A stretch of DNA of 64,000 bases, taken from the NCBI GenBank assembly GCA_015062395.1, contig SUUS01000002.1, positions 35,028 through 99,027 of the forward strand, in the 5' to 3' direction. The stretch's first letter is position 1; each line of letters begins with the position of its first letter. The position numbers were made by a program, and so were the translations under genes. Of the stretch, positions 48,101-52,625 are shown one piece after another. Under the pieces are notes generated by a model. It ran no database searches and had not been told where the DNA came from. It saw nothing but the letters and a program-made list of their open reading frames with translations. The DNA comes from Alphaproteobacteria bacterium. GTDB lineage: Bacteria > Pseudomonadota > Alphaproteobacteria > CAAHEQ01 > UBA3637.

Positions 48101-51100
48101 TGGCGAAGATTTAGGTTCTTTCCCATATGATAATCGCTTATTAAATGCAAACGATGTTTGGGTCGGAAGAGTTTTACCTGTTGGTGTTGCATTAGATGTT
48201 GATGGACGTTTGTTGGGCTCTACGCGTTATGATGCGGCTGTCGTTAATACAAGAGGACAATCCGTTGGTCAAGTTCGTTATGATAACAGAATCGTGAATA
48301 CTTCTGGGGAGGTTATTGGGCAATATGTTCCATACGGTACTTTATACTTTGATCAAAAGGGTAAAGTTTTAGGTGCAATGGCTTTTGATGGCGTTGTCAG
48401 AGATGGAAAAGGTTCTGAAATTGGATTGGTCGTTGGTACGACTTTAGTTGATAAAAATAGCAACATTTTAGGTAATGAAATGGGTCAAGGATTTGCTTTG
48501 GATGAACAAGGTAATGTCACAGGGCATATTTTCCCAAATGCAACGACACAAAAAGATGTGGATGGGGAAATTCAAATCAATACTTTGACAACGAATTTAC
48601 GGATTGTTGATCGTAATAAAGCCATTGTTGGTGGAACAGTTCCATTTGGTATTGCGTTGGGTTTAGACTTGTCCGTTGTTGGCAATATCATACCTGATGG
48701 TTCAATTTTACAGGGTAATGCTCTTTCTGCTAAAAGTTTAACAGATACAGTCATGTATGACACATTAGATAAAGTTGTCGGAGGTGTTATTGCGCCTGCT
48801 GTTGTTGTTGGCAGAGATGGACGTATCGTTGGTTCAACTTCAGTATCAAATGCTGTTAACGATAATAAAGATGCGCGTATTGCAACATTGATGCCTTTTG
48901 GAACGGCATTAGGTAAGGAAAATAATTTAGTGGGTATGACTATGCCAACAGGTGCTGCTGTGGATGATTTTGCGCGCGTTGTCGGTTTTGTTGCAGCAGA
49001 TGGTTCTGTGATTAAAGCAGATGGTGCAATGGCTGGTCGTGTAATGCAAGATGGTACGATTGTTCGCTTGTTATCTCGCGATGCTTACGGTGTAATGCCT
49101 GATTTTGCTGATGTGATAGCAAGTGGTGTTGCAATCGCTTTGAAACCACAATTATTGGGTCGTTCGATGCCCAGTGGCGATGTTTTGGATACGACAAACA
49201 AGAAAATAGCTTCTGTTTTGGATGATGCAACATTGTTGGGAACAGATGGTAATTTGGCTGGTGCTTTGGTTGGATGGAGAACTGCAATAGACCATCAAAC
49301 AAATGTTATTGGTAATTCTACAGGTGATGGTTTTGTGACGAGTATCAAAGGGGTCGCTGTTGGACCTTTGGCATCAAATGGTGCAATTAAAGGGAAGCAT
49401 CAATTAAAGACATTAGGTGCAGTTATTCCAAAAGAACTAGTGGCAAAACAATGTAAGATTCAAGGTCAAGTTCGCTATGATGGTCGCATTATTGATGGAA
49501 ATGCTCAGGTTGTAGGTACAATCGGTTTAGATGGTATGGCAAAGGGAACTCAAGGTCAACCATTAGGTGGCGTAGTTTTAAAAGGAACGGTTATTGCTGA
49601 TAATGGTGATGTTTTGGGACGTACTTTACCAGATGCTGATGTGGTTAATATGGATGGTGTTTCAATCGGTTGTGCATTAGAAGATGGTACAGTTATTGAT
49701 AAAAACGGTAATGTGATAGGTCACGTTTTGAAACGAGGTATTGTCGTTGATGAAAATGGAAATGTTATCGGTCGAGTTTTACGTAATGGTCAAGTTGTTA
49801 ATGCGAAAAACGAAGTGATTGGTAAAGTTTTAGGCGATGGTACGGTCGTTGATAAAGATGGCAACGTTATTGGTCGTGTTGTTGATGTTAAAAGGGATCA
49901 TTTGCTTTACGATGATGATGGAAATATCATTGGATCTATGGACAAAGCTGGTCGTGTTTTTGATAACAATGGAAAGCACTTATTCACAGTTGGTGCAGAT
50001 GATAAACTTTACGATCCAAATGGTAATTTAATTGGATATTTGGATGAAGAAGGAAATATCTATGATTTAGCTGGTAATAAGATTGGAGATGCTACCAATT
50101 GGCCAACTTATTTGTATGATGCAAACGGTAATGTTTTGGGTTATCTAAAAGATGGAAAATTGTTTGATGTCAATGGTAATCAAACAGGTTGGATTGATGA
50201 AAATGGCAACATTTATGATATGGATGGCAATTTAATCGGTCGTATCAATCCTGATGGTTCTTTAAGTTTGTTTGGTGGAAAGGAAGCTTGCCAAAATGCT
50301 AAATACAATGGAGAAGTTCATGATGTAAACGGCGAATTGCTCTATCGTATCGAGTGTGGAAAGATTTACGATAAGTACGGAAATCTAATTGGTACGATTG
50401 ATGAAAATGGCAATATGTACGATTTGAACGGCAACTACATGGGTCGTATAGACGAAAACGGAAACGTTTACGATGCTGACGGTAATTTGATTGGTAAGTT
50501 TACGCCAGATTTAAGTTCAGCCGAATGCAAAAATGCCAAGTACAACGGAGAGGTTCGTGATGTAAACGGCGAATTGCTCTATCGTATCGAGTGTGGAAAG
50601 ATTTACGATAAGTACGGAAATCTAATTGGTACGATTGATGAAAATGGCAATATGTACGATTTGAACGGCAACTACATGGGTCGTATAGACGAAAACGGAA
50701 ACGTTTACGATGCTGACGGTAATTTGATTGGTAAGTTTACGCCAGATTTAAGTTCAGCCGAATGCAAAAATGCCAAGTACAACGGAGAGGTTCGTGATGT
50801 AAACGGCGAATTGCTCTATCGTATCGAGTGTGGAAAGATTTACGATAAGTACGGAAATCTAATTGGTACGATTGATGAAAATGGCAATATGTACGATTTG
50901 AATGGCAACTACATGGGTCGTATCGATGAAAACGGAAACGTTTTTGACGCCAATGGTAATTTGATTGGTCGTTTTGAATCGGATTTAGCTTCAGGAGAAT
51001 GTAAGAATGCACAATACAATGGCGAAGTTTATGATACAAATGGCGAATTGCTCTATCGTATTGAATGTGGAAAAATCTATGACAAAGATGGTAAACTGAT

Positions 51101-52625: not shown

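Follow-up and report, generated by a model that had tools for sequence, protein, structure and literature searches.

In the 64,000-nucleotide stretch analysed here (the window; part of contig SUUS01000002.1 of the Alphaproteobacteria bacterium assembly GCA_015062395.1), a giant virB10 gene of a type IV secretion system (T4SS) contains a tandem array of 237-bp units ahead of the region encoding its VirB10 domain. We consider it probable, at roughly 0.75, that the units of this array each encode one whole domain, and that such domains are gained and lost by in-register recombination and patched by gene conversion. The array occupies 50284-51231 and consists of four in-frame units of 237 bp (79 codons), corresponding to amino acids (aa) 1709-2024 of the open reading frame (ORF) 45159-52625. 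The original prediction, which was made from the sequence alone, had placed it at 50284-51233, and the computed end lies within 2 nt of that position. The gene and the parts of its array are as follows, with the letters by which the units are also called.

45159..52625, + strand: giant virB10 gene, 2488 aa (ORF translation; Pfam TrbI, Bflower_2, Bflower and DUF3659)
50284..50520, + strand: unit 1, or A (repeat search, lag-237 identity, variable-column table)
50521..50757, + strand: unit 2, or H, an exact chimera of units 3 and 1 that is missing in the three-unit allele (variable-column table, diagnostic junction strings)
50758..50994, + strand: unit 3, or B (lag-237 identity, variable-column table)
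50995..51231, + strand: unit 4, or C, a diverged terminal unit orthologous to the last unit of related species (identity to units 1-3, cross-species comparison)
50321..50902, + strand: perfectly periodic stretch of 582 bp, presumed substrate of in-register recombination and origin of the assembly ambiguity (lag-237 identity runs; contig ends nearby)

A repeat search of the window recovered the four copies at an exact spacing of 237 nt, and Tandem Repeats Finder (TRF) reported a 237-bp period at 50289-51073 with 3.3 copies, 92% matches and zero indels. Nucleotide identity at lag 237 is 94% inside the array, and by pairs of units it is 95.8% (1/2), 92.0% (2/3) and 87.8% (1/3), falling to 69-70% between unit 4 and units 1-3. 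The array had been described as four near-perfect copies; there are indeed four in-frame units, but the near-identity applies to units 1-3 (88-96%) and not to unit 4 (~69%). The uninterrupted identity of more than 400 bp attributed to the first three copies was likewise overstated, as the longest exact self-match at lag 237 measures 345 nt (50321-50665 = 50558-50902) and the block identical across units 1-3 measures 108 nt. Even so, a 345-nt exact repeat within 64 kb cannot be due to chance. Every unit encodes the pattern ...EC(K/Q)NAKYNGEV...RIECGKIYD..., with a spacing of 22 residues between its two Cys, in agreement with the predicted Cys-pair motif in each copy. A 100-aa ORF on the minus strand (50737-51039) was discarded as an artefact of the repeat.

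Mosaic structure and alleles of the array

Units 1-3 vary at 29 columns, and a comparison there shows unit 2 to be an exact chimera, equal to unit 3 at columns 0-36 and to unit 1 at columns 145-236. Units A and B differ at 10 of 38 positions in the head and at 19 of 91 in the tail (flanks 21-26% divergent), but at none of the 108 positions of the centre, and a zero-difference run of this length never appeared in 200,000 permutations (P < 5e-6). Unit C differs from both A and B at 29 of these 108 positions, so invariance is not an inherent property of the centre; the diverged flanks around an identical centre indicate that A and B are old paralogues whose centre was recently homogenised. A mosaic of this kind is what unequal crossover together with gene conversion leaves behind. 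The earlier proposal of recent duplication or gene conversion thus gains support from the exact hybrid nature of unit 2 and from the contrast between 0/108 in the centre and 10/38 and 19/91 at its sides. Unit H would be the product of one in-register crossover in the shared centre, and the reverse event, a deletion of H, would yield A-B-C. One crossover within these 108 nt would be enough to account for the difference between the A-H-B-C of the window and the A-B-C of co-occurring strains, in a direction, gain or loss, that these sequences cannot determine.

Because the three upstream units share long exact tracts, in-register homologous recombination could add or remove whole domains, while short-tract gene conversion could copy patches between units, and both the reading frame and the fold would stay intact throughout. 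The enzymology might involve RecA or replication slippage. An on/off phase-variation switch was rejected, as all alleles are in frame.

Alleles were sought in metagenome contigs of the same organism, which were retrieved by means of exact BipA, VirB11 and VirB9 proteins and are 99.9-100% identical to the window. Three of them cross the array with 711 bp, corresponding to units A-B-C: L001 (JGI 3300032167), L002 (JGI 3300018878) and L012 (ERZ27248446, assembled at k141). This three-unit allele encodes 2409 aa, exactly one unit less, and is without unit 2. The gene in L001 is otherwise 100% identical to that of the window, its identical prefix of 5507 nt and suffix of 2068 nt adding up to more than the length of the gene. 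L002 carries four single-nucleotide polymorphisms (SNPs) in the array, each of which is the base of the next unit downstream (columns 166 and 169 of A are B-type, and columns 7 and 10 of B are C-type), as would be expected of short-tract gene conversion. The in-frame change of length that had been anticipated from the unit size is therefore an observation, both in these three independent contigs with the 2409-aa allele and in related species, which carry one to five units.

Further contigs terminate at the margins of the exact repeat: L019 (ERZ27248436, also k141) ends at 50665, while L008, L009 and L010 start at 50558, 50561 and 50567, respectively. For k > 108, such branch points require that both the A-tail and the B-tail follow the B-head and centre, which implies that H is present in those samples; the contig ends thus give indirect support for unit H outside the window contig. 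The exact 2488-aa protein had no match in the contig index. A 46-mer of the shared block had 0 matches in one metagenome contig collection, which evidently lacks the samples of L001 and L002, and a search for the H junction in a fragment of the same protein cluster (P0106) found only an N-terminal piece. The array had also been flagged as a likely site of assembly collapse, a warning borne out by the several contigs that end exactly at the edges of the 345-nt repeat and by the fact that extra copies of unit 2 leave the k-mers unchanged. Since A-H-B-C and A-H-H-B-C share their k-mers, counting the copies takes fragments of 583 nt or longer, and four units is a minimum for the window allele. In practical terms, short-read assemblies of the giant virB10 gene are unreliable across a stretch of 0.6 kb.

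Predicted fold of the units and their history in related species

A single unit of 84 aa exceeds the Pfam gathering scores of both Bflower_2 (43.4 vs 38) and Bflower (31.1 vs 25), and the whole protein reaches 418 and 200 bits, respectively (clan CL0395; PF21784/PF21785). The AlphaFold2 (AF2) model of one unit has eight strands and a predicted local distance difference test (pLDDT) score of 88, and it fits a closed shallow barrel of short antiparallel strands from hairpin petals, as in a beta-flower. A model of all four units (411 aa) scores 85-95 in pLDDT inside the units, drops below 50 in the short linkers directly preceding each first Cys and has a predicted template modelling score of 0.35; the confident units and poorly scored linkers suggest independent beads on a string. 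Each 79-aa unit is therefore predicted to consist of four beta-hairpins closing into an autonomous, eight-stranded, four-fold barrel.

Neither the first Cys nor the hairpin Gly residues vary in the 34 modules that were aligned. The second Cys also occurs in 34/34, but the two module types (ECG vs DCV) place it one column apart in the alignment, so that it does not score as an invariant column. In one-unit alleles, the unit region has exactly two Cys, so any disulfide would be intradomain, and the pair probably forms such a bond, since the unit region should lie beyond the inner membrane. This placement, presumably in the periplasm, is suggested by the layout of the protein, whose remaining parts are as follows.

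45216..45287, + strand: N-terminal hydrophobic segment, aa 20-43, WLLVAGIVGAIAFLFALIMLTSGG (seen in translation)
45846..50282, + strand: ancient degenerate region of 17-aa beta-hairpin repeats, aa ~230-1708 (Gly autocorrelation, 22-protein alignment, 14 Bflower_2 stretches)
51675..52256, + strand: VirB10/TrbI C-terminal core domain, aa 2173-2366 (Pfam PF03743, PDB matches, NCBIfam)
52257..52622, + strand: acidic C-terminal tail, aa 2367-2488, with a conserved YYxPxY motif (translation; conserved columns Y2423 and P2425)

The segment at aa 20-43 is one hydrophobic stretch, read by eye in the translation, and by analogy with canonical VirB10 it is presumed to be the inner-membrane anchor. The hairpin region has Gly autocorrelation peaks at 17, 34 and 51, and its nucleotide identity at lag 51 (a 51-nt period) is only 39%; the upstream repeats had been called degenerate, which is correct, and assigned a period of 16 aa, which is in fact 17 aa. 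In an alignment of 22 proteins of the family, the first ~1700 aa are positionally conserved with recurring invariant Gly columns, and the alignment fails only near the Cys modules, from which it follows that the hairpin region is old, fixed and not homogenised. Pfam matches to beta-flower and DUF3659 repeats extend over most of the sequence ahead of the core domain. The core domain scores 117.1 bits against PF03743 (TrbI/VirB10; cutoff 35), and the C-terminal 459 aa match the PDB chains of ComB10 (2bhv), Xanthomonas VirB10 (6gyb), CagY (8cb2), TrwE (7o3j) and TraF (3jqo). No solved chain matched the N-terminal 2029 aa in a sequence search of the PDB. The NCBIfam model NF038091 (T4SS_VirB10) gives 107.6 bits, below its cutoff of 220, which marks the protein as a divergent VirB10 member rather than an equivalog. 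The units, as predicted beads, sit ~150 residues ahead of the outer-membrane core domain and after ~1500 aa of ancient hairpins, and their number could alter the length or geometry of the link between the hairpin region and the outer-membrane core, tuning the reach of the machine.

Further details of this protein were noted. The hairpin region has three further conserved Cys pairs at 401/474, 553/626 and 1432/1505, each exactly 73 residues apart and possibly linked as disulfides that close barrels of four hairpins. The CxxC at aa 197-200 does not vary within the family. The acidic tail of ~120 aa has a terminal aromatic residue besides the family-conserved YYxPxY.

The variation in unit number extends well beyond the organism of the window. 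A hidden Markov model of the unit, combined with a Cys-pair filter, detected one to five Cys-pair modules in the 21 nearest protein clusters, with at least one kept in 21/21, and no module of this type in clusters beyond these. A sister lineage has forms of 2428 aa with three units (5 sequences), 2350 aa with two units (9 sequences) and 2271 aa with one unit. In its three- and two-unit alleles, the units are 70-81% identical at the DNA level and their longest exact runs are only 26 and 38 nt, so these alleles are not assembly collapses. The one-unit allele joins the head of the first unit to the remainder of the last, with the junction within the shared 38-nt run. Another lineage has one unit, two units, or four full units accompanied by a degenerate one. 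Last units are orthologues across species, whereas upstream units are closest to others within the same genome (for instance, 99%, 97% and 94% aa identity), which indicates that expansions have been repeated and independent. In older duplicates, synonymous codon differences outnumber non-synonymous ones (13:2 and 28:9), an excess that points to purifying selection keeping the extra domains.

Other long-period repeats were found with TRF inside the gene in 27 of 80 related loci, with periods in multiples of ~51 bp and a few at 91-94% identity. Some relatives are larger: L078 (3001-13163) and L102 (2529-13686) have matches of ~10-11 kb, or roughly 3400-3700 aa, and L102 has a 153-bp repeat in about 10 copies. 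Two distant relatives, P0018 (aa ~1700-2000) and P0022 (aa ~1730-2000), have other, Cys-free tandem modules at the same position ahead of the VirB10 domain, such as 'GADGKEYTVK...' in four copies and 'LPKGYKIKNGNELYD...' in three. Module expansion seems to favour this site in general.

Known systems and rival explanations

CagY, the VirB10 homologue of the Cag T4SS, has Cys-bearing repeat modules with proposed disulfides, and their number varies between strains with an in-frame change of length (PMC10706595). The original prediction likened the Cys pairs to the repeats of this protein, and the resemblance is sound as regards architecture. Both proteins have a C-terminal VirB10 domain (the CagY fragment 8cb2 matches the window protein at E 6e-8) that is separated from the membrane anchor by a very long repeat region, and in both, the number of modules changes in frame, here between three and four units among short-read contigs that are 99.9-100% identical and between one and three in the sister lineage. 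The likeness does not extend to the sequence or fold of the repeats. No CagY repeat family was among the Pfam hits of the unit at E <= 1, and CagY modules are short alpha-helical A/B motifs (delta-mu-alpha, epsilon-lambda-beta), whereas the units of the window are predicted 79-aa, eight-stranded beta-barrels. Homology to the CagY repeats was therefore rejected, and the parallel is one of analogy. In addition, only the last three to four modules are homogenised here, as opposed to the dozens that are dynamic in CagY; the window protein has no cytoplasmic 5' repeat region; and its host is an alphaproteobacterium, while that of CagY, Helicobacter pylori, is an epsilonproteobacterium.

DotG/IcmE, from the Dot/Icm type IVB systems of Legionella and Coxiella, is also oversized and has a long internal repeat region before a VirB10-type domain, its repeats being pentapeptide repeats. 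The NCBIfam entry for the DotG C-terminus weakly matches the window protein (E 2.6e-5), but the repeats here are 17-aa hairpins and the virB8-virB9-virB10-virB11 operon has a type IVA layout. As for the fold, the beta-flower families PF21784/PF21785 were described by Durairaj et al. 2023 (PMC10584680) as small stand-alone proteins, some of them lipoproteins, and the units share with them hairpin 'petals' with [DNEQ]xxG turns and an eight-strand form that matches the four-fold flower of that work. In the window protein, in contrast, a T4SS core subunit incorporates dozens of hairpins by fusion, the Cys-pair module occurs in tandem as a domain of variable copy number, and the units are without the C-terminal helix that many flowers enclose. 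Near-identical DNA repeats that each encode one folded domain, with recombination altering domain number, are found in Rib/alpha C of group B Streptococcus and in SasG/Aap, which are cell-wall adhesins of Gram-positive bacteria with many identical repeats. The array of the window differs from them in having few repeats and in belonging to a subunit of a Gram-negative, envelope-spanning machine.

Several points weigh against an interpretation of the array as truly polymorphic. Every sequence comes from a short-read metagenome assembly, and the JGI and ENA samples could represent independent hosts or one passaged community. The H junction (B-head, centre and A-tail) was directly seen in the window contig alone, and the argument from contig breaks presupposes a final k of 127-141; if the assembly graph had k < 108, one more pass round the loop between A-tail and B-head would yield exactly unit H. 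The one-unit allele of the sister lineage (L105) is less certain because it comes from a k=31 Logan assembly, with its junction in the 38-nt shared run. The differences could then be an artefact of assembly, either of a fixed three-unit array with an extra pass through a de Bruijn loop or of a fixed array of at least four units with collapsed contigs, and no real polymorphism would exist. The composition of unit 2, which has no base absent from units 1 and 3 and equals a second pass through the loop, agrees with this idea, as do the many contigs that break in or near the array. We nevertheless regard an artefact as improbable. At k=141, L012 passes through A-B-C without a break, but L019, which belongs to the same project, comes to an end exactly at column 144 of the second unit. 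Only the continuation into A-tail or B-tail differs at that stop, so both continuations must be present in that sample and one in the sample of L012, and L008 begins exactly at the mirror branch point, column 37 (50558). Moreover, the paralogue-templated SNPs of L002 are not something that an assembler invents, and the sister lineage differs in copy number between arrays in which no exact run shared by the units exceeds 38 nt.

If the variation is real, it might still be neutral, with duplication and conversion as by-products of long direct repeats, a unit number without effect and an array that simply drifts. We see this as possible, if doubtful. The one to five units of related species follow no obvious pattern, and the long-period tandem repeats of 27/80 related genomes lie at various positions of the gene; however, the older duplicated units are under purifying selection (13:2 and 28:9), both Cys are present in 34/34 aligned modules, and 21/21 nearest clusters retain at least one Cys module. 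On sequence grounds, this conservation argues that the domains matter, and it says nothing for their number. At the other extreme, the array could be a rheostat like that of CagY, exposed to hosts or competitors, in which recombination is selected during colonisation to tune or switch the T4SS or to evade antibody. Such a role would fit the CagY-like layout of anchor, long repeat region with Cys modules and VirB10 domain, the copy-number alleles among 99.9%-identical strains and the provenance of the organism from a clade of animal and human guts. It is nonetheless very unlikely in our view, as the modules resemble those of CagY in neither sequence nor fold, only three to four of them are dynamic instead of dozens, the first ~1700 aa align positionally across 22 family members, and virB4, virB6 and virD4 are not in the window.

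If whole domains are indeed gained and lost by recombination, the array is a natural allelic series of one to five domains beside the core domain, which lets the tuning of a T4SS by linker or domain number be tested. Two oversized VirB10 proteins full of repeats, CagY and DotG, are already known, both from pathogens. The giant virB10 locus adds a third solution, which seems to have arisen independently and uses a fold whose first description dates from 2023, and the giant VirB10 family of this uncultured gut lineage is undescribed. A full-text literature search found no paper connecting this protein with type IV secretion, none was found on 'VirB10' together with 'RF32', and the sample and protein accessions likewise gave no hit in the literature. 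One could go further and speculate that this widespread clade of human and animal gut Alphaproteobacteria independently evolved a CagY-like giant VirB10, recombining its last few disulfide-stapled barrels during colonisation to adjust secretion or evade recognition by hosts or competitors, and that the hairpin region of ~2000 aa forms an unseen periplasmic or external superstructure of the T4SS, but we consider this unlikely.

The operon and other features of the window

The 2488-aa protein is identical to MBE6449274.1 (cluster member P0105), which is annotated as 'MAG: DUF3659 domain-containing protein [Alphaproteobacteria bacterium]'. Relatives of the same architecture, with lengths of 1400-2609 aa, form more than 100 protein clusters, and the family was matched in 323 species-level genomes, all of them uncultured gut or rumen Alphaproteobacteria from hosts that include humans, yak, buffalo, goat, deer, horse and rabbit. 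The gene order virB8-like, virB8, virB9, virB10, virB11 is the same in related contigs, and the neighbours of virB10 in the window are the following.

41589-42227, + strand: virB8-like gene (Pfam, NCBIfam)
42586-43347, + strand: virB8 (Pfam, NCBIfam)
43437-45059, + strand: virB9/CagX (Pfam, NCBIfam)
52646..53635, + strand: virB11 ATPase gene, starting 20 nt past virB10 (Pfam T2SSE; NCBIfam VirB11, E 1.7e-43)

Directly upstream of the virB8 genes, at 35410-41582, there are five ORFs (233, 234, 679, 261 and 642 aa) whose N-termini, read by eye, are mostly hydrophobic and signal-peptide-like. They have no Pfam or NCBIfam match, their order is conserved in related contigs, and they are candidates for novel T4SS components. 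The third of them (ORF 36840-38879) belongs to the T4SS cluster and encodes a 679-aa protein that is rich in Gly/Ser, matches no family and, judged by eye, appears to begin with a signal-peptide-like segment. Within this ORF lies a 39-bp tandem repeat of 7.3 copies (window 37502-37785) encoding GGSGGLGNLASAL. In contig L019 this gene encodes 627 aa, that is, 52 aa or four repeats less, which is either a second in-frame length polymorphism in the same operon or an assembly ambiguity.

Two observations concern regions further upstream. The single ORF 28920-32156 (1078 aa) joins an LptF/LptG permease domain (aa 7-355) to LptD (aa 410-1011), and it is either an unusual fusion of inner- and outer-membrane lipopolysaccharide transport components or the result of a missed frameshift or stop. 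Finally, a tRNA-Lys(CTT) gene at 12265-12340 is followed by a 216-bp tandem repeat with 2.4 copies and 98% identity (window 12265-12836). The repeat unit opens with the 3' end of the tRNA (GCCTCCACGCGCCTACCA) and a terminator-like hairpin, and the whole resembles remnants of an attachment site, reiterated next to the tRNA gene.

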